From assembly GCA_964410505.1 (NCBI GenBank), contig CAYPGR010000004.1, positions 20,576 to 84,575 of the forward strand: a stretch of 64,000 nt of DNA, read 5' to 3'. Shown here piece after piece: positions 1-52,659 of the stretch. This stretch comes from an uncultured Staphylococcaceae bacterium (lineage in GTDB: Bacteria; Bacillota_I; Bacilli_A; RFN20; CAG-826). Below the pieces are notes generated by a model. The model had not been told where the DNA came from and made no database searches. It was given only the letters and a program-made list of their open reading frames with translations. How positions within the stretch are numbered: the first letter of the stretch is position 1; every line of letters begins with the position of its first letter. A program made the position numbers and the translations under genes.

Positions 1-444
1 GAAAAAACCCAAGTTGGGGCAAAAAAAGATGTGATTGCTTTTCTTGAACAAGCGGGTTATCCAAATTACAATGGCGGTCTAACTGCCGCCGAACTCATCA
101 AACGGCCTAACATTACCCTCAACGACATGATGGCTTTTCTCCCTGAAATTGATTTTTCTATCTTAAATCCAAACGATCTTTTTCAACTTGAAACCGATAT
201 CAAATATGAAGGCTACATTGCCAAACAACAACAGGAAGCAAAACGACTTCATAAGCTTGAAGAAGTCGCCATTCCTGAATCATTTATTTATGAACATCTT
301 GATGGATTACGGATTGAAGCCCGGCAAAAGCTGGCTAAAGTCAAGCCATTAACGATTGGCCAAGCAAAGCGAATTAGTGGTGTTAATCCAAACGATATTA
401 TTATTTTGATGACTTATTTACGCCGGTATAAAGAAAATGCCTAA
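1..444 (+). CDS. mnmG: tRNA uridine-5-carboxymethylaminomethyl modification enzyme MnmG (GidA), C-terminal part; 5' end lies upstream of the window
   Basis: Frame 1 is open from nt 1 with no stop. The C-terminal MnmG-like sequence is present (...KYEGYIAKQQQEAKRL...GQAKRISGVNPNDI...). It is followed by rsmG-parA-parB as in origin-proximal operons. Confidence 0.8.
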   Translation, partial: EKTQVGAKKDVIAFLEQAGYPNYNGGLTAAELIKRPNITLNDMMAFLPEIDFSILNPNDLFQLETDIKYEGYIAKQQQEAKRLHKLEEVAIPESFIYEHLDGLRIEARQKLAKVKPLTIGQAKRISGVNPNDIIILMTYLRRYKENA

Positions 445-1138
445 TCTTCTTTTAACTTATTTAAATGAACATTTTGGTGAAGATTTAGCCAAAAGTCTTT
501 TTCCTCAATTCCAACGCTATGCGCAACTTCTCGAAGCACAGAGTAAAATCCATAATTTAACGGCCATCGCACCTGAAGAATATGATGAAAAACATTTTCT
601 TGATTCGCTTCTTTTGATGGAGACTTACCCTTTTCAAGATGAAAAAATAATCGATGTCGGTACTGGCGCCGGATTTCCGGGGCTTGTTTTGGCGATTGCG
701 TTTCCAAAGCTTTACGTCACGCTTCTTGAGCCTACTCGCAAACGGTGCGACTTCCTTACGATTGTGGTGGAAGAGTTAAAACTAAGTAATGTAACAATTG
801 TTAATGAACGGGCGGAAGATTATGTAAAACAGGCGCGTGAGACCTTTGATTTAGCAACGTCAAGAGCGGTTGCCAATTTATCGATTATCCTCGAATTAAG
901 TACACCACTTGTTAAAAAAGGGGGCAGTGTCCTTGTCATGAAGGGTAAAAACTTCCATGAAGAACTTCAAGAGGCGCAACATGCCATTAGCGTCCTGAAG
1001 TTAGAACAATCAACAACAAAGATGCATCATCTGCCAACTGACGAATCGATGCGGGTGAATGCAAGGTTTATAAAAAAAGAGATCACAAACATGAAATATC
1101 CTCGGGCCTACGGTCAAATAAAGAAGAACCCATTATAG
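437..1138 (+). CDS. rsmG: 16S rRNA m7G527 methyltransferase RsmG (GidB)
   Basis: 233 aa with the SAM-methyltransferase glycine motif DVGTGAGFPGL. The start overlaps the mnmG stop by 8 nt, the classic gidA-gidB coupling. Confidence 0.8.
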   Translation: MPNLLLTYLNEHFGEDLAKSLFPQFQRYAQLLEAQSKIHNLTAIAPEEYDEKHFLDSLLLMETYPFQDEKIIDVGTGAGFPGLVLAIAFPKLYVTLLEPTRKRCDFLTIVVEELKLSNVTIVNERAEDYVKQARETFDLATSRAVANLSIILELSTPLVKKGGSVLVMKGKNFHEELQEAQHAISVLKLEQSTTKMHHLPTDESMRVNARFIKKEITNMKYPRAYGQIKKNPL

Positions 1139-1170
1139 GGTTTTTTTGTTATAATGTACGGGAGTAAAAT

Positions 1171-1950
1171 ATGACCAAAATTATTGCAATTGCTAACCAA
1201 AAAGGTGGTGTTGGAAAAACAACGACTGCTATTAATCTGAGTGCCTCTTTTGCGCACTTTGGTCGTAAGGTTTTGCTCATCGATATGGACCCGCAAGGTA
1301 ATTCGAGTCGCGGTCTAGGTCTTGATCCAACAAATGTTAAATATACGATCTACCATAATTTCTTTAAGGGAATCAATATTAACAAAACCATTTATAAAAC
1401 CCCCCTTAAAAATTTAGATGTCATTGGTGCCAATTTATTGCTCGCCCGTACGGATGTCGAAATCACAACTATTCCGCAACACCCTTTTACGGTATTGAAA
1501 TCAAAAATTAAAGAACTTGATCGCAGTTATGATTATATCTTTATTGATTGCCCACCATCGCTTGGCCTTTTAAGTACGAATGCGCTGGTGGCGGCCAATA
1601 GTGTCATCATTCCTGTTCAATGTGAGTATTTTGCCTTAGAAGCCGTCGCGCAAGTTTTAGCCACCATTAAACAAGTCCAAACGTCCCATAACGATCATCT
1701 GAAAATTGAAGGGTTTTTACTCACAATGTACGATGAACGGACCCGGCTAGGGATTGAAATTAGCCAACAAATCAGAGGTTTATTTAAAGAATCGACCTTT
1801 ATGACACCGATTCCTCGGAATATTGCCCTCGCAGAAGCGAGCGCAAAAATGCTCCCGACGATTCTTTACAAACCAAGTTCAAAAGGTTCACTAGCCTATT
1901 TAAATGTTGCTAAGGAAATTATTGAAAATGAAGAAAGAATCGAAGAATAA
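1171..1950 (+). CDS. parA: Chromosome partitioning ATPase ParA/Soj
   Basis: Deviant Walker [18 protein letters not shown] and a full ParA/MinD-family body of 259 aa. Confidence 0.9.
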
Positions 1951-2734
1951 ATTACTTAACGAACATTTAAGTTCCCTTATTTCCAAATATTCTCAAAGTA
2001 ATGTTTTGGATGAACTGGCTAAAGCACATGGCAATTTACCTATTCAAGCGTTGAAAATAGAAGAAATTCTTGACAATCAATTTGTTAAAAAAGTGACTTT
2101 GCCCCCATTTAAACTTAAAATATTTATTGAAAACTACCAACATAATATTTTATTAGAACCACTCGTCGTAAGAGCTAAAGGCGATAAATATGAAGTCATT
2201 ATTGGCCGAAAACGATTAGCGGCTGCCCGTCTTGCGAAACTACCGGAAATTCCGGTTATTATCATGAATTACAATGATGAAGAAACACTTCTCATTCTTT
2301 TGGCAAAAGTAAGAGATGCCCAAGGAAGTGGTGTCCTGGAATTAGCCTACATCTTTGATCACCTACACAAACAATATGGTTATTCACACCAAAGCCTAGC
2401 TAAGTTAGCGATGACGAGTCGGTCGCAAGTGACTAATATACTGCGTCTTTTAAAACTAAGTCAACCGCTTTTAAAGGCCCTCAATTATGAAGAACTCTCA
2501 TTTGGTCATGCGCGGGCATTAATTACAGTCTCGGAAGAAAATGCCCTTAGTTATTTAAGACTCATTACTGAAAATAAACTTTCGGTTCGCGAGATAGAAA
2601 CCCTCCTTAAAGCGCCCAATGAATTGGGTGTGACAGATCAAGAATACTTCTATATCAAACATAAAAACAAAGTGACGATTATCTTCAAGGACGAAATGAT
2701 GGCAAATCAATTTATCCAAAAAAAACTCAAATAA
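1904..2734 (+). CDS. parB: Chromosome partitioning protein ParB/Spo0J (alternative start at 1928)
   Basis: Overlaps the parA 3' end. ParB box region [13 protein letters not shown] and an HTH region are present. Length is 268-276 aa. Confidence 0.8.
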
Positions 2735-2743
2735 TTATATATG

Positions 2744-2772
2744 TTGAAAAAAATACCGATTACGATTATAAT
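2744..2772 (+). promoter_or_regulatory. Sigma-A-type promoter for the FMN riboswitch-ribU transcript
   Basis: TTGAAA-17 nt-TATAAT sits directly upstream of the riboswitch. Confidence 0.4.
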
Positions 2773-2778
2773 GGAATT

Positions 2779-2885
2779 ACTTCAGGGCGGGGTGTAAGTC
2801 CCCACCGGCGGTATACCCCGCGAGCGCAAGCTGAACTAGTGAGATTCTAGTGGCGACAGTTATAGTCTGGATGGGAGAAGACCTT
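2779..2885 (+). promoter_or_regulatory. FMN riboswitch (RFN element)
   Basis: Near-identical to the conserved RFN cores: ...CAGGGCGGGGTGTAAGTCCCCACCGGCGGTA... and ...GCGACAGTTATAGTCTGGATGGGAGAAGA... match the B. subtilis ribD leader motifs GGGTGAAATTCCCGACCGGCGGTA and CCGACAGTGAAAGTCTGGATGGGAGAAGG. The downstream CCTTTC.../GAAAAGG helix can sequester the SD AAAGGGGG of ribU. Confidence 0.8.
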
Positions 2886-2918
2886 TCTTTATAGGCGCTC
2901 TGAAAAGGGGGCCTTTTT

Positions 2919-3554
2919 ATGAACAAAAATGTATTAGAACAATCACCAATTGAATCCAAGGAAAAAGAACCGATTTCACGGCGCCAATCTAAGAGAAGAC
3001 AAACTACCATTATTGTTGGGACAGCTATCTTTGCGGCGATTTCCGTTTTACTATATATTGCCAAAGTACCGCCCTTTATTTTTCCAATTTTCCCACCTCC
3101 ATTTGATTTTTTAGAAATCAATTTTAGTGAAGTGCCAGCAATGATTGCCGGCTTTGCGTATGGACCACTAAGTGGATTCATGGTGTTAGTTATTCGCTTT
3201 CTTGTTAAATTACCTTTAACTTCGACTGCCATGATTGGTGAAGTAGCCGATATTATTTATTCATCGAGTTTCGTCTTAACAGCAACGATTATCTATAAAT
3301 ATCGGCGGACCTTTAAGGGGGTTTTATTAGGATTAAGTATCGCCTTTTTCGTTCAAGTGATCGTGAGTGCGGCCGCAAACTACTTTGTGATTTATGATAT
3401 GTATAATGTGCTATTTGGTGGCCACCTCCCATTTAATGCCAAACAATTTATTGTTTATGTAATCCCCTTTAACATGATTAAAAACTTAATTATTGCGACG
3501 TTGACGCTTCTCGTATATAAGCGGATTTCTAAATTTATTAGAGGTTTCTATTAA
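2919..3554 (+). CDS. ribU: ECF-transporter substrate-specific (S) component, probable riboflavin transporter RibU
   Basis: 211-aa polytopic membrane protein (~5-6 TM) with no ATPase or T component nearby. It lies directly behind an FMN riboswitch, the classic ribU arrangement. Confidence 0.7.
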   Translation: MNKNVLEQSPIESKEKEPISRRQSKRRQTTIIVGTAIFAAISVLLYIAKVPPFIFPIFPPPFDFLEINFSEVPAMIAGFAYGPLSGFMVLVIRFLVKLPLTSTAMIGEVADIIYSSSFVLTATIIYKYRRTFKGVLLGLSIAFFVQVIVSAAANYFVIYDMYNVLFGGHLPFNAKQFIVYVIPFNMIKNLIIATLTLLVYKRISKFIRGFY

Positions 3555-3592
3555 AAGAAAAACGCTAGCGACTTGCTAGCGTTTTCTTTTTC
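3555..3592. terminator. Bidirectional rho-independent terminator between ribU (+) and fer (-)
   Basis: Perfect stem ACGCTAGC-gactt-GCTAGCGT flanked by A-run and T-run. Confidence 0.6.
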
Positions 3593-3607
3593 AAATGGTT
3601 GATAAGT

Positions 3608-3802
3608 TTATTCAACTTTGATCGCGCCGGTTGGGCATGATGCTTCCGCTTCAAGGGCGGCATCGACTAGATCGGCAGGAACAGTATCTGTAAGCGTCTT
3701 CATTTTTCCGTCATCATCCCAATCAAATACTTGTGGGCAAATGGAATTGCAAACACCGCAGCTAATGCATAAATCTTTATCAAGTGTAACTTTACGTGGC
3801 AT
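3608..3802 (-). CDS. fer: Ferredoxin, single 4Fe-4S cluster (Bacillus Fer-like)
   Basis: MPRKVTLDKDLCISCGVCNSICP...ASCPTGAIKVE. AGGAGG lies 7 nt upstream of the ATG at 3802. The longer 81-aa ORF version lacks an RBS. Confidence 0.75.
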   Translation of the reverse strand: MPRKVTLDKDLCISCGVCNSICPQVFDWDDDGKMKTLTDTVPADLVDAALEAEASCPTGAIKVE

Positions 3803-3928
3803 GTTAAACCTCCTAATATAAGTAATTATAACCATTTGAACGGGGCAATTCAATTCATATTAGAAAGAGAATAATTCTAAAGGGTTACCCGAGTAATTTG
3901 TGCTTATTTATATTATTATAAATAGAGT

Positions 3929-4243
3929 ATGGCACGGAAAGAACAAATGCAAACCCGAGTTGATTATTGGCGTGATTATCGGCAAACGATAAAAACGAGT
4001 TTTGCCCGTTCCCAAAAGCCAGAAAAAAAGCCTAAAGTCGTGCAAAAACCGGTCCTTGTGGAAGAAGAAAAAAAGCCTTCGGTTATGCGTGCGGAAGCTT
4101 TACTTAACGAATATGAAAAGAAGAGTGGTGTTGAAGAAGAATCAAAAAGAGAACCAAACGGGTTACTCTTTGGTCTTGCAATCGTGGTGCTTCTTTTAAT
4201 TATCGCCGGTGTAATATTCATGATTTGGAGGTATCAATTATGA
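3929..4243 (+). CDS. Hypothetical small protein, Lys/Glu-rich with C-terminal membrane anchor
   Basis: 104-aa ORF with a C-terminal TM (LLFGLAIVVLLLIIAGVIFMIW). It occupies the position of small ypf genes upstream of cmk in Bacillus. Confidence 0.4.
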   Translation: MARKEQMQTRVDYWRDYRQTIKTSFARSQKPEKKPKVVQKPVLVEEEKKPSVMRAEALLNEYEKKSGVEEESKREPNGLLFGLAIVVLLLIIAGVIFMIWRYQL

Positions 4244-4908
4244 AAAATATAGCCATTGCCATCGATGGTCCTGCCGCAGCAGGAAAATCGACTATTGCCA
4301 AAAAAGTAGCCGCTCATTTTAATTTTGTTTATATCGATACGGGAGCGATGTATCGGGCCTTTACGTGGTATGTTTTAGAAAAAGGACTCGATCCTAAAGA
4401 TGAAAATCTCGCAAATTCAGTCATCTCAGAAGTGCACATTCGCCTTTCAAGTGATGGCAAAGTTTTTGTTAATGGGATGGATGTTTCTAAAGCCATTCGC
4501 GAACCACGGGTATCAGGTAATGTTAGTTACATTGCTTCTTATCCAAAGGTCCGCATTTTCTTAACTGAACAACAACGAGAACTTGCGAAAGAGGTCAGTG
4601 TGGTGATGGATGGCCGTGATATCGGCACCTTCGTTTTACCGCATGCGGATGTCAAAATATTTCAAACCGCTTCAGTCGCTATCCGGGCGAAGCGTCGCTT
4701 TTTGGAAAATGAACAAAAAGGAATTAAAACGAGCCTTGAAGAAATCGAAAAAGAACTTGCTATGCGGGATCATATTGATTCGACGCGGGCGATGGCCCCT
4801 CTTCGTCAAGCAGAAGATGCCATTATTTTAGATACCGATTATCTATCGATTGATGAGGTTGTTGATGTCATCATCAAAATTGTAAATAACAAGATTGGAG
4901 TCAGATAA
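4240..4908 (+). CDS. cmk: Cytidylate kinase
   Basis: P-loop IAIDGPAAAGKST. GGAGG lies 8 nt upstream of the ATG at 4240. Full-length Cmk. Confidence 0.9.
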   Translation: MKNIAIAIDGPAAAGKSTIAKKVAAHFNFVYIDTGAMYRAFTWYVLEKGLDPKDENLANSVISEVHIRLSSDGKVFVNGMDVSKAIREPRVSGNVSYIASYPKVRIFLTEQQRELAKEVSVVMDGRDIGTFVLPHADVKIFQTASVAIRAKRRFLENEQKGIKTSLEEIEKELAMRDHIDSTRAMAPLRQAEDAIILDTDYLSIDEVVDVIIKIVNNKIGVR

Positions 4909-6215
4909 TGTCATTACCTGTCGTTGCCATTGTTGGCACACCAAACGTGGGTAAATCCACCATATTTAATCGGATTATCGGGGAACGTCGGTCGATCATC
5001 CATGATGAACGCGGGGTGACACGCGACCGAATTTATGCCGTTGGCGAATGGTTAACCCGTAAATTTAACTTAATTGACACTGGAGGAATAGAACTTGTAA
5101 AAAGTGCTTTCCAACAACAAATACGTGCCCAAGTTGAAATTGCAATTGAAGAAGCGGATGTCATTATTTATATTGGCGATGGCCCATTAGGAGTTACGTC
5201 CGATGATCGGGAAATTGCAAATCTTTTATATCGCGCAAATAAGCCAGTCGTTGTTGCCGTCAATAAAATTGATGGAGCTGAACACCATTACTTAATTCAA
5301 GATTTCTATGCCCTTGGCCTTGGTGAACCAATTGCCATAAGTGGGGCGCATGGGATTGGGATTGGTGATTTACTCGATGAAGTCATTAGAGTTCTACCAG
5401 AACAAACCGATGATTATCACGAAGATGTGACATCTTTTGCGATAATTGGGCAGCCTAATGTTGGCAAGTCAAGTTTAGTCAACGCGATCTTAAATCGCGA
5501 ACGCGTAATTGTGACGAATATTGAGGGCACGACCCGTGATTCGATTGACACACCATTTACACGTAACGGCAAAGACTATGTCGTGATTGACACGGCAGGC
5601 CTAAAAAAGCGTGGGAAGATTTATGAAAGTGTTGATAAATATGCTGCTTTGCGCGCATTTAGTGCGATTTCAAAGGCGGATATTATATTATTCGTTATTG
5701 ATGCGGTTGCTGGGATTAGAGAGCAAGACAAGCATGTGGTTGGCTACGCCATTGAAGAGAGTAAAGCGATTATCATTGTCGTTAATAAATGGGATGCAAT
5801 TGAGAAAAATGATAAAACGATGAATGAATTCACCGATAAGATTCGCAAGGAGTTCAAGTTTCTCGATTATGCGCCGGTTGTCTATGTATCCGCTTTAACA
5901 AAGTTACGCATCGACCAAATTTTTACGCAAATTGATTTTGTGAGTGATGCCTATCGGCGCCGCGTTGAAACAAACTTACTCAATGAAGTGATTCATCGCG
6001 CCCAACTTTATAACGATCCCCCTGTTTTTAATGGGGGCCGCGTAAAAATTTACTACGCTAACCAAGTGAGTATTAAACCGCCTACCTTTGTCTTTTTTGT
6101 TAATAGTCCACAATATGTTCACTTTTCATATCAACGATATTTAGAAAATCAAATTAGAGAAGCGTTTTCCTTTGAAGGAACGCCACTAAAATTTATCTTC
6201 AGGGAGCGTAAATAA
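4908..6215 (+). CDS. der: GTPase Der (EngA), tandem GTP-binding domains
   Basis: Two G domains (GTPNVGKST... and GQPNVGKSS...) plus a KH-like C-terminus, 435 aa. Confidence 0.9.
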   Translation: MSLPVVAIVGTPNVGKSTIFNRIIGERRSIIHDERGVTRDRIYAVGEWLTRKFNLIDTGGIELVKSAFQQQIRAQVEIAIEEADVIIYIGDGPLGVTSDDREIANLLYRANKPVVVAVNKIDGAEHHYLIQDFYALGLGEPIAISGAHGIGIGDLLDEVIRVLPEQTDDYHEDVTSFAIIGQPNVGKSSLVNAILNRERVIVTNIEGTTRDSIDTPFTRNGKDYVVIDTAGLKKRGKIYESVDKYAALRAFSAISKADIILFVIDAVAGIREQDKHVVGYAIEESKAIIIVVNKWDAIEKNDKTMNEFTDKIRKEFKFLDYAPVVYVSALTKLRIDQIFTQIDFVSDAYRRRVETNLLNEVIHRAQLYNDPPVFNGGRVKIYYANQVSIKPPTFVFFVNSPQYVHFSYQRYLENQIREAFSFEGTPLKFIFRERK

Positions 6216-42891: not shown

Positions 42892-42922
42892 AAAAAAGCT
42901 CACGATATGTGAGCTTTTATTT
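42892..42922 (+). terminator. Rho-independent terminator after gpx
   Basis: AGCTCAC-gatatg-TGAGCT followed by TTTTATTTT. Confidence 0.6.
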
Positions 42923-42983
42923 TGTGGATGGTGCCCGGGGCCGGACTTGAACCGGCACGGTGTCGCCACCGCAGGATTTTAAG
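42920..42983 (-). repeat. Direct repeat: 64-bp perfect copy of the 3' portion (anticodon loop to CCA) of the tRNA-Leu(UAA) gene at 44176..44239; attL/attR-like
   Basis: Identical string TTTTGTGGATGGTGCCCGGGGCCGGACTTGAACCGGCACGGTGTCGCCACCGCAGGATTTTAAG occurs at both sites. The two copies diverge immediately afterwards. Confidence 0.75.
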
Positions 42984-43143
42984 ACTGTTGGTTATTCGCA
43001 ACTTCAAAAAATAGCAAACTTAACCAAACCACAAAATATATCGCATTTAAAACAATTTACAGTCTTAATTTGTAGAAGAACAAATTTCTAATGTTTGATT
43101 AAGTATGTTAAAATAAAAATACTATGTATTTGAGGAACACCAA

Positions 43144-43962
43144 ATGTTTAAAGAATTTTTGAATGATCGTGTAGATCTACCTAAACTAAAACGTTTTGCA
43201 ATTTTAGGCAACTCTAAAACCAACGACTTTGAGAGAAAATTAGATTATTTAATTAATGTTGCGGAAAAAGAAAATTGGGATCAAACCGACATTCACACTG
43301 GAAGGAAAAATTCCACCATTTTTTATTATATTGTTCATACGTTTGATCGAATTCATACTCAAAAAAAGATCTATTTTGACGATAATTATGAAAATTCCTT
43401 TTTCAACACAGGTTTGATGGACAGTCAAGGCAATGAAATTCTCGGTCACTTTACTAAATCCACCTTTCACAAGGAAGGAGATGCTTCTAGTAACTATTGG
43501 TATTTTAAAGCTTTTCTAAAGTCAAATGATAAGGACTTTGTTCGACTTTGTAAAACAAAGCCGGAACCCGCAACCTATTTTGATGACTACAACGAATTAT
43601 ATTTTGATCCAAAATTAAATATTGAAATAAATTTCGATCATATTTATGACGATAATTTCATTCGATTACCCGATTCATTAAAAACATTAGACAAGGAAAT
43701 GGCTAGAATGGTTTTTGATGGATTTCTTTCATTCACAAAAAAGAAGATTATTAGAAACAACCGTATACCGGTCCCTCAATTTTACGATAATAAAATAACC
43801 TTTTTAATCCCCGTCAAAATATTTGACAAGGATACTGTTGTAATTGCATTAGAAAAAATCAACAATAGCTATATAGCAAATACTGTTTTAACAATGGGCA
43901 TGGCTTACAACTGCGCGCGGCTAATAACAAAGCCCGAAAGCAATTGGCTGCTTATTGACTAA
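43144..43962 (+). CDS. Hypothetical protein (272 aa), orphan cargo of the tRNA-Leu islet
   Basis: GAGGA RBS 8 nt upstream of the ATG and a dedicated terminator at 44110..44148. Soluble, Asp/Asn/Phe/Tyr/Lys-rich, with no recognised catalytic motif. Confidence 0.6.
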   Translation: MFKEFLNDRVDLPKLKRFAILGNSKTNDFERKLDYLINVAEKENWDQTDIHTGRKNSTIFYYIVHTFDRIHTQKKIYFDDNYENSFFNTGLMDSQGNEILGHFTKSTFHKEGDASSNYWYFKAFLKSNDKDFVRLCKTKPEPATYFDDYNELYFDPKLNIEINFDHIYDDNFIRLPDSLKTLDKEMARMVFDGFLSFTKKKIIRNNRIPVPQFYDNKITFLIPVKIFDKDTVVIALEKINNSYIANTVLTMGMAYNCARLITKPESNWLLID

Positions 43963-44109
43963 TTATTTGTATTTTTGTTTACAATAAAAATAATATTTGA
44001 TAGTATTAATACATCATCAGTTAAACAACAATATAAGACATTAAAATAATTAAAATAATTTATACTGATGATAAAAATACATACGACTCTTACATATTAC
44101 AAACACATA

Positions 44110-44148
44110 AGGGAGCATCAAACAATTAGATGCTCTTTTTCTTTTTTT
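44110..44148 (+). terminator. Rho-independent terminator for the islet gene
   Basis: GAGCATC-aaacaatta-GATGCTC followed by TTTTTCTTTTTTT. Confidence 0.5.
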
Positions 44149-44180
44149 AAAAAAACAAGCCGTTAGGCTTGTCTTTTTTG
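44148..44180 (-). terminator. Terminator of the minus-strand tRNA operon (bidirectional hairpin)
   Basis: CAAGCC-gtta-GGCTTG flanked by an A-run and a T-run, directly 3' of tRNA-Leu. Confidence 0.5.
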
Positions 44181-44271
44181 TGGATGGTGCCCGGGGCCGG
44201 ACTTGAACCGGCACGGTGTCGCCACCGCAGGATTTTAAGTCCTGTGCGTCTACCTGTTCCGCCACCTGGGC
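44181..44271 (-). tRNA. tRNA-Leu (anticodon UAA), long variable arm, CCA encoded
   Basis: Reverse complement is GCCCAGGTGGCGGAACAGGTAGACGC...CTTAAAATC...GGTTCAAGTCCGGCCCCGGGCACCA. There is one A.C mismatch in the acceptor stem. Confidence 0.85.
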
Positions 44272-52575: not shown

Positions 52576-52659
52576 TGGTGCAGCCAGAGAGACTTGAACT
52601 CTCACGGGAATCCCATACGCCCCTCAAACGTACGCGTCTACCAGTTCCGCCATGGCTGC
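52576..52659 (-). tRNA. tRNA-Leu (anticodon GAG), long variable arm
   Basis: Reverse complement is GCAGCCATGGCGGAACTGGTAGACGCGTACGTTTGAGGGGCGTATGGGATTCCCGTGAGAGTTCAAGTCTCTCTGGCTGCACCA. Confidence 0.8.

Follow-up and report, generated by a model that had tools for sequence, protein, structure and literature searches.

A DUF3825 protein gene and a conserved small RNA-like gene in a cassette of probable prophage type at a tRNA-Leu(UAA) gene

An islet of 1.2 kb lies next to a tRNA-Leu(UAA) gene in a 64,000-nucleotide (nt) stretch of DNA from an uncultured Staphylococcaceae bacterium (assembly GCA_964410505.1, contig CAYPGR010000004.1, positions 20,576 to 84,575), which in its entirety is called the window here. 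The islet carries a gene for a DUF3825 protein and, behind it in the same orientation, a small RNA (sRNA)-like gene whose structure is conserved in related loci. The explanation that we favour, with modest confidence, is that the two genes make up a prophage-derived protein-plus-sRNA cassette at a tRNA attachment (att) site, which acts on RNA. The islet itself is of an ordinary kind, an att-flanked remnant without an integrase, and the protein, judged by its sequence, belongs as a new member to a family that is known but entirely uncharacterised. The main interest lies in the conserved, apparently undescribed sRNA partner and in the pattern of RNA-binding domains to which proteins of this family are fused.

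A preliminary description, made from the sequence of the window, had called the 272-residue protein an orphan with no recognisable motif, while allowing that it might resemble a DUF-type family. It is no orphan. Pfam assigns residues 38–268 to DUF3825 (PF12873; E = 1.3e-52, 179.2 bits against a cut-off of 27), in an alignment that covers profile positions 3–238 of 238, and among 1.84 billion cluster representatives (clusters at 50% identity) 2,460 family members were recovered by profile at E <= 1e-3. Residues 13–270 also match positions 6–256 of the 258 in PHROG 11623, a phage family of unknown function (E = 7.4e-56), and an identical protein, MFA5659822.1, from a metagenome-assembled genome (MAG) labelled 'Bacilli bacterium', bears the NCBI name 'DUF3825 domain-containing protein'. 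The absence of a familiar motif was confirmed: Pfam scans of all 38 family members showed neither a second recurring family nor a known catalytic motif besides DUF3825, NCBIfam and a sequence-profile search of the PDB gave no match to the protein, and no nuclease-like motif or fold was detected in it. Neither 'DUF3825' nor 'PF12873' is mentioned in the full texts of the searchable literature library.

The gene is under purifying selection, with a proportion of non-synonymous differences (pN) of 0.13–0.23 against relatives and a synonymous proportion (pS), already saturated, of 0.76–0.89; the earlier view that it is selected rather than junk was thus well founded. Residues invariant in 38 sequences, two phage proteins among them, are N88 T89 G90, H166, R174, R204 N205 R207, P211 Q212 Y214, E237, N246 T247, M253 A254 Y255, A258 R259 L260 and W268. 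The AlphaFold2 model (predicted local distance difference test 89.4, predicted template-modelling score 0.85) has two alpha/beta halves, the C-terminal one being made of a strand, three helices, a four-stranded meander and a helix. A structure comparison of this kind had been suggested at the outset; Foldseek found no significant match to the model in the PDB or BFVD. The ribosome-binding site reported previously is present, at a spacing of 7 nt rather than 8. The candidate extended −10 promoter of the gene has counterparts in homologous loci, where TGnTATAAT-type elements stand at an equal upstream distance.

Similarity between the window and its closest relatives runs on past the stop codon of the DUF3825 gene in the alignment. 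Within the clade of at least 49% identity, 12 of the 15 loci (the window, L038, L040, L039, L045, L041, L008, L043, L034, L044, L011 and L010) share an order of promoter, 5' stem (P1), GACAAAC linker and terminator. In all 12, a sigma-70-type promoter is found 4–96 nt after the stop codon, with a TTTACA or TTGACA-like −35 element, a spacer of 16–17 nt and a TAnnnT −10 element usually preceded by TGn. P1 starts 6–12 nt past the −10 element (6–8 nt in 11 of the 12 loci) and closes an A/U-rich loop of 38–66 nt; behind it come an unpaired, A/C-rich linker with the conserved motif UAUAU-GACAAAC and an intrinsic terminator. Because no terminator intervenes between the stop codon and the element, the DUF3825 mRNA must run through it, and since the single terminator is shared, the sRNA sequence should also form the 3' end of that mRNA. 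The features of the islet and its flanks are listed in Table 1.

Table 1. Positions of the features of the islet and its borders, numbered from the first nucleotide of the window
Feature	Position	Strand	Remark
DUF3825 protein gene	43144..43962	+	Open reading frame (ORF), ATG start, 272 aa
Ribosome-binding site GAGGA	43132..43136	+	7 nt before ATG
Candidate extended −10 promoter of DUF3825 gene (TGtTAAAAT)	43106..43114	+	Inferred, read from sequence
Putative promoter of sRNA-like gene (TTTACA, 17 nt, TG-n-TAGTAT)	43978..44006	+	Begins 16 nt after stop codon
sRNA-like gene, ~136 nt	44013..44148	+	Minimum free energy z-score, P1 shuffles, covariation, covariance model
P1 stem	44013–44021 / 44064–44072	+	Closes 42-nt A/U-rich loop
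Unpaired A/C-rich linker with motif UAUAU-(G)ACAAAC	44073–44108	+	
Hairpin terminator GAGCATC/GATGCTC	44113–44135	+	U tract to 44148
Left att-like direct repeat	42920..42983	.	64/64 nt identity to 44176–44239
Displaced promoterless tRNA-Leu(UAA) 3' half in left repeat	42929–42983		With 9 nt of 3' flank
Right att-like direct repeat	44176..44239	.	Within intact tRNA-Leu(UAA)
Intact tRNA-Leu(UAA), integration target	44185..44271	-	ARAGORN; Rfam tRNA, 55 bits
Native bidirectional terminator	42894–42918		Just outside left repeat; 3' of glutathione-peroxidase (gpx) gene
Insert-borne second bidirectional terminator	44155..44172	.	On minus strand ends tRNA operon, in place of 42894–42918

Several measures agree that this element is probably a functional RNA. 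In the window it has a minimum free energy z-score of −5.16, and when P1 was compared with dinucleotide shuffles at each locus, z ranged from −3.4 to −6.8 (−5.9 in the window; Fisher p = 8e-19). Across the 12 loci the arms of P1 have a mean identity of 38%, yet pairing is found in 82 of 84 cells and each of the seven pairs shows covariation; with permuted arms the number of paired cells averaged 48.5 and did not exceed 69, and with slid partners it was 24–43. Eight G–U pairs are formed when P1 is read on the plus strand. MAFFT, run on the 12 sRNAs with or without N padding, did not align P1; a four-sequence seed was therefore used with Infernal, alongside the hand-anchored analysis with its controls. 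The covariance model from this seed placed four further elements, all downstream of DUF3825 genes, above everything else in 551 kb. In the resulting eight-sequence alignment, which is itself fitted to the model, 93.4% of cells are paired as against 59.3% in shuffles (none of 500 reached the observed value), and compensatory change is seen in 15 of 16 pairs; RNAalifold predicts the same two helices. A scan of 1.1 Mb for the composite pattern of promoter, 7-bp stem and terminator gave 15 hits, of which 11 lie directly behind DUF3825 stop codons, three are tRNA genes and one falls elsewhere. The sRNA still aligns between relatives although synonymous sites in the neighbouring gene are saturated. 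No Rfam family matched the element, either in the window (E up to 10) or at six other loci (E up to 1), and the sequence comparisons suggest an apparently undescribed sRNA gene that accompanies DUF3825 genes of one subfamily.

Two observations concern the variability of the element. In the loop of the window RNA, a 9-nt unit, ATTAAAATA, is repeated 2.3 times (44040–44060), which was not seen in other loci. Downstream of a 61%-identical homologue beside a tRNA-Gly gene (L006:10856-10980) stands a GC-richer, apparently degenerate element with a short stem, a UUGACUGUC...AAAAAAGG linker and a terminator, with no clear promoter and a covariance score of 17 bits, which is at noise level.

The preliminary description had taken the region behind the stop codon for an AT-rich 3' untranslated region (UTR) of about 150 nt ending in the gene's own hairpin terminator, and had named the protein gene as the only coding sequence inside the repeats. 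The hairpin terminator, with its T run, is there, and the mRNA would read through the region as just described; the conserved promoter and the structure of a separate sRNA-like gene speak against a mere UTR and against the protein gene being the islet's only functional element. We nevertheless considered a reading in which the region does no more than stabilise the DUF3825 mRNA, as a structured 3' UTR that ends in a terminator, and in which the promoter hexamers are chance products of AT-rich DNA. Such a view gains from the lack of a terminator before the element and from the number of promoter-like sites in the region, eight where 7.2 are expected in shuffles. It does not explain why a −35 element of one type is found in 12 of 12 loci, at a spacing of 16–17 nt and mostly with TGn before the −10 element, or why P1 keeps its register with the −10 element in 11 of them, which is hard to account for without a transcription start. 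We regard it as rather improbable, and the RNA structure would in any case stay conserved and functional under it.

What the protein may do is suggested by its relatives. Longer members of the family carry one or two cold-shock domains (CSDs) before DUF3825, an S1 domain behind it, or a GYF domain together with a CSD; the window protein has no such fusion. All of the recurrent partners are domains that bind nucleic acid in single-stranded form, as a rule RNA, and by the logic of domain fusion the CSD and S1 partners make action on or with RNA the most likely activity of DUF3825, and we give an even chance to the proposition that the protein acts on or binds RNA. Two Bradymonadales loci with CSD-type homologues (L017 and L022) have a small hydrophobic ORF some 90–250 nt downstream, which by eye, from the sequence only, appears YqaE/Pmp3-like.

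The same fusions bear on the main rival to our explanation, a regulatory pair in which DUF3825 would serve as a chaperone for RNA or as a regulator that binds it, functionally like proteins of the FinO/ProQ type with their cognate sRNAs, and the sRNA would act, through its A/C-rich linker, on host or prophage transcripts. A conserved single-stranded motif beside a terminator hairpin is the usual layout of a trans-acting sRNA, and the fusion partners are RNA-binding domains rather than nucleases, in keeping with the failure to detect a nuclease-like motif or fold. On the other hand, Pfam shows no similarity to FinO/ProQ or Hfq, and no target was identified. Nor do the sRNAs pair more strongly with the leaders of their own mRNAs than with those of other loci (mean duplex energies of −6.3 kcal/mol for cognate and −7.0 kcal/mol for non-cognate pairs, with unremarkable cognate ranks over the 12 loci). 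We consider a regulatory pair unlikely, if plausible. The last result also led us to reject a type I-like antisense action on the mRNA leader, which an 18-nt match with 78% complementarity in the window had brought up.

The architecture of the islet is that of an integration into a tRNA gene. Two perfect 64-nt direct repeats stand 1256 nt apart, the right one comprising positions 33–87 of the intact tRNA-Leu(UAA), which run from the anticodon loop through the 3' end, and the 9 nt that follow; because the right repeat belongs to the intact gene, the left one is the displaced partial copy. The tRNA is the final gene of a Val-Tyr-Gln-Lys-Leu operon. Between the repeats, 1,192 bp have a G+C content of 29.1%, as against 39.0% for the window, and hold no other credible ORF than that of DUF3825. 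The proposal that this is a horizontally acquired, self-contained islet at a tRNA att site, with one coding sequence inside the repeats, was thus borne out. Identity blocks that reach into the anticodon loop are characteristic of the att sites of tyrosine integrases, and the islet bears the classical marks of integrase-mediated insertion into a tRNA gene from which the integrase has gone: four tyrosine integrases used as tblastn queries found none in the window. With a single ORF in the insert and no integrase, the islet is at most a remnant or a non-autonomous derivative. Two different bidirectional terminators, one just outside the left repeat and one carried by the insert, have the same role, from which it follows that the element preserved termination of the tRNA operon as well as the 3' half of the tRNA. 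The native terminator now serves only the displaced tRNA fragment, its part for the operon having been taken over by the terminator on the insert.

The same islet was found in other metagenome assemblies. Logan contigs of 1252 bp were considered as a possible excised circle and rejected; they correspond to window positions 42954–44205 and consist of the unique 1192 bp with 30 nt (k−1) of repeat on each side, as expected of an assembly break.

A survey of the neighbourhoods of homologues, also proposed at the outset, found them in the accessory region between lysin and att of temperate Firmicute phages, beside integrases, in settings that resemble defence islands and, in other cases, alone near various tRNA genes. 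The homologue in Listeria phage A006, gp21, is 40% identical and lies between the endolysin and the AcrIIA1/attP/integrase region; that of Streptococcus phage Javan385 follows the lysin at the prophage end. In L043 the gene comes after holin–CHAP lysin with a DUF3800 gene nearby, in L044 after a LysM protein and near TnpB, and on two viral contigs (L035 and L036) it abuts a tyrosine integrase. Elsewhere it adjoins AIPR and a split integrase (L045) or an HTH–MTaX1–DNA methylase module (L038), or it marks the border of an island that includes HsdM (L041). Several MAGs have it alone among housekeeping genes, which differ from one case to the next, and no conserved protein neighbour or partner of the DUF3825 gene was found. 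A tRNA gene lies within 500 nt of the homologue in four of 22 genome loci (Gly, Glu, Trp, Ala) and in the window (Leu), where roughly 2% would be estimated for a random gene, as would be expected if elements integrated at tRNA genes had decayed repeatedly; none of the homologues beside other tRNA genes is surrounded by att-like repeats of tRNA fragments. Such settings are those of an accessory gene of prophages, a 'moron', and not of a housekeeping gene, and together with the islet's architecture they indicate that the cassette is very probably an acquired one of prophage type.

Two of these neighbourhoods have features of their own. The L045 region (84-5288) resembles a defence island, with an HNH gene, a tyrosine integrase split into 216 and 65 amino acids and, on the opposite strand, the AIPR abortive-infection protein, followed by DUF3825 and its sRNA and then by a helix-turn-helix (HTH) gene. 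In L038 (380-3104), HTH, MTaX1 and DNA (cytosine) methylase genes directly upstream of the DUF3825 cassette may form a restriction-modification or defence unit.

Two other readings of the gene's presence at the tRNA fare poorly in the light of these settings. One takes it for a housekeeping gene, inherited vertically, whose place beside a partially duplicated tRNA is a coincidence. Several relatives do sit among housekeeping genes, but the neighbours differ in every genome, the G+C content is atypical, the family occurs in phages and the insert bears a foreign terminator; this is the least probable of the readings considered. Scarcely more probable is an autonomous miniature mobile element in which DUF3825 would be a novel recombinase guided to tRNA genes by the adjacent RNA, in the manner of IS110 and its bridge RNA. 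One protein gene and one non-coding RNA between target-derived repeats, with no integrase, would suit such an element, as would the finding that close relatives adjoin five different tRNA genes in differing neighbourhoods. Yet no other copy is flanked by tRNA-fragment repeats, many copies lie inside prophages or beside ordinary tyrosine integrases, and a 64-nt block of identity that extends to the anticodon loop is what a tyrosine integrase leaves behind. Nor does the protein have a DEDD/RuvC-like domain or any other recombinase domain or motif. Targeting of the neighbouring tRNA through guidance by the sRNA was rejected, the complementarity between the two being inconsistent (z from +1.8 to −3.1).

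The cassette resembles several known arrangements. It is like the morons and lysogenic-conversion cassettes found between lysin and att in prophages in having its own promoter and terminator, a G+C content below that of the host, relatives at prophage ends and a variable presence; unlike them, it is found where the phage itself is gone, and it consists of a protein gene and an sRNA gene. Integrase-less islets flanked by att sites are known as cis-mobilisable elements (CIMEs) of streptococcal integrative and conjugative elements and as decayed tRNA-linked genomic islets. These share with the window intact att repeats made of the tRNA 3' end and the lack of integrase or transfer genes, whereas the window islet is only 1.2 kb long and neither a helper element nor an empty site was identified for it. 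The protein of phage A006 is homologous over its full length, with the shared invariants NTG(L), DH, RNxRxxVPQxY, E237, NT and MAYxxARL.

That a DUF protein of prophages can travel with a structured RNA of its own has a precedent, by analogy, in DUF3800 genes and their DUF3800-I to -X RNA motifs (Rfam RF02969 and others). The likeness is one of arrangement, an uncharacterised prophage protein with a conserved structured RNA; the protein family and the RNA both differ, and the window RNA belongs to no Rfam family. One such pair is found in L043, at a distance of 2.2 kb from the DUF3825 and sRNA cassette and within the same accessory region at the prophage end, where a DUF3800-I RNA (5775-5880, plus strand; RF02969, 94 bits) closely precedes a DUF3800 gene. 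This places two protein-plus-structured-RNA pairs in one moron cluster.

Type III toxin–antitoxin and abortive-infection systems (ToxIN, CptIN, TenpIN) offer a possible working analogy, being mobile two-gene modules of a protein gene and a separately promoted non-coding RNA. The window RNA lies downstream of the protein gene, not upstream, and is without tandem repeats, Tandem Repeats Finder reporting only the 9-nt unit; the protein is outside the ToxN/AbiQ, CptN and TenpN families (Pfam and PADLOC gave only DUF3825). A toxin–antitoxin or exclusion module analogous to these systems is the most attractive working model, but since the pair differs from type III systems in these ways, we put forward a toxin–antitoxin or abortive-infection-like role only tentatively. 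Weak Foldseek alignments of the C-terminal half to the RNase toxins RelE, YoeB, HigB and BrnT (target-normalised TM-scores of 0.35–0.49 over 67–99 columns) come with probabilities of at most 0.28 and E values of at least 1, and profile comparison by hhalign with YoeB and RelE sequences gave no match; a RelE/YoeB-like relation of the modelled fold is a lead only.

The explanation that we prefer would run as follows. A temperate-phage-type integrative element, or a miniature derivative of one, would have inserted site-specifically into the segment of tRNA-Leu(UAA) from the anticodon loop to the 3' end. Its bulk, integrase included, would then have been lost, unless the islet was a non-autonomous mini-element from the start. 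What is left may be a selected, self-contained moron of two co-oriented genes, the first encoding the DUF3825 protein with its own promoter and ribosome-binding site and the second an sRNA, some 135 nt long, with a strong promoter to itself. DUF3825 could be an RNA-directed factor, with RNA as its substrate, and the sRNA, its only conserved neighbour, could be its dedicated partner, as a bound ligand, a regulator or a neutraliser. Such a pair might benefit the lysogen, for example through phage exclusion by a protein–RNA toxin–antitoxin or abortive-infection module. More broadly, it is possible, at about the same low confidence as that role, that DUF3825 and its sRNA represent an unrecognised two-component system, a moron spread by temperate Firmicute phages in which the sRNA binds and controls an RNA-directed effector (as an RNA antitoxin, or in abortive infection or exclusion), and that the CSD- and S1-fused proteins of other phyla are single-chain versions of it.

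A number of results weigh against this explanation or narrow it. All contigs recovered with the site either carry the insert or break at the repeat, and none has an empty site (attB). No phage record with DNA similarity to the islet was found, and no viral contig with the 35-nt att core, to point to a donor. A decayed larger element and a naturally tiny element mobilised in trans both fit the islet. That both genes are transcribed is a step that we infer. A second covariance model missed the four most divergent candidates (L010, L011, L043 and L044), so that the element is confirmed by covariance model at eight of the 12 loci and at these four rests on architecture and shuffle statistics. More distant DUF3825 genes, including the A006 and Javan385 phage copies, are followed by a plain terminator only; the sRNA is accordingly a feature of this one Bacilli/Erysipelotrichales MAG subfamily and not general to DUF3825. 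PADLOC-DB v2, finally, gave one weak partial match, to PDC-M13A (E = 0.0016), which is present in none of 37 relatives. Membership of a known defence family was rejected on this ground, the match being attributed to chance. Of the earlier suggestion of a candidate defence or accessory gene, the accessory part is upheld by the phage and defence-island-like settings and the part concerning a known defence family is not; given the temperate phages and defence-island-like regions in which relatives occur as accessory genes, 'accessory, possibly anti-phage' is still a reasonable description.

DUF3825 is a sizeable family in bacteria and temperate phages, with neither a solved structure nor a detectable fold relative. 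Three leads now make it testable: its place in the lysogenic-conversion slot of prophages, its repeated fusion to CSD and S1 domains, and a covarying sRNA gene absent from Rfam. The compact cassette, 1.1 kb in length, can be cloned and tested directly. Should it turn out to be a system of protein–RNA toxin–antitoxin type or one for exclusion, the biology of phage–host conflict would gain a new family, and structured RNAs a new class; otherwise it would still be a new sRNA–protein pair in the poorly studied Bacilli and Erysipelotrichales.

Two of the composite-scan hits that do not lie behind DUF3825 genes deserve mention. The only one that is neither a tRNA gene nor behind a DUF3825 stop codon (L008:9282-9452, plus strand) is some 150 nt upstream of a tRNA-Glu gene and may be a small RNA or a product of chance. 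The other is a second tRNA-Leu gene in the window (anticodon GAG; 52576–52659, minus strand), the promoter and terminator of which matched the pattern and which has no adjoining islet.

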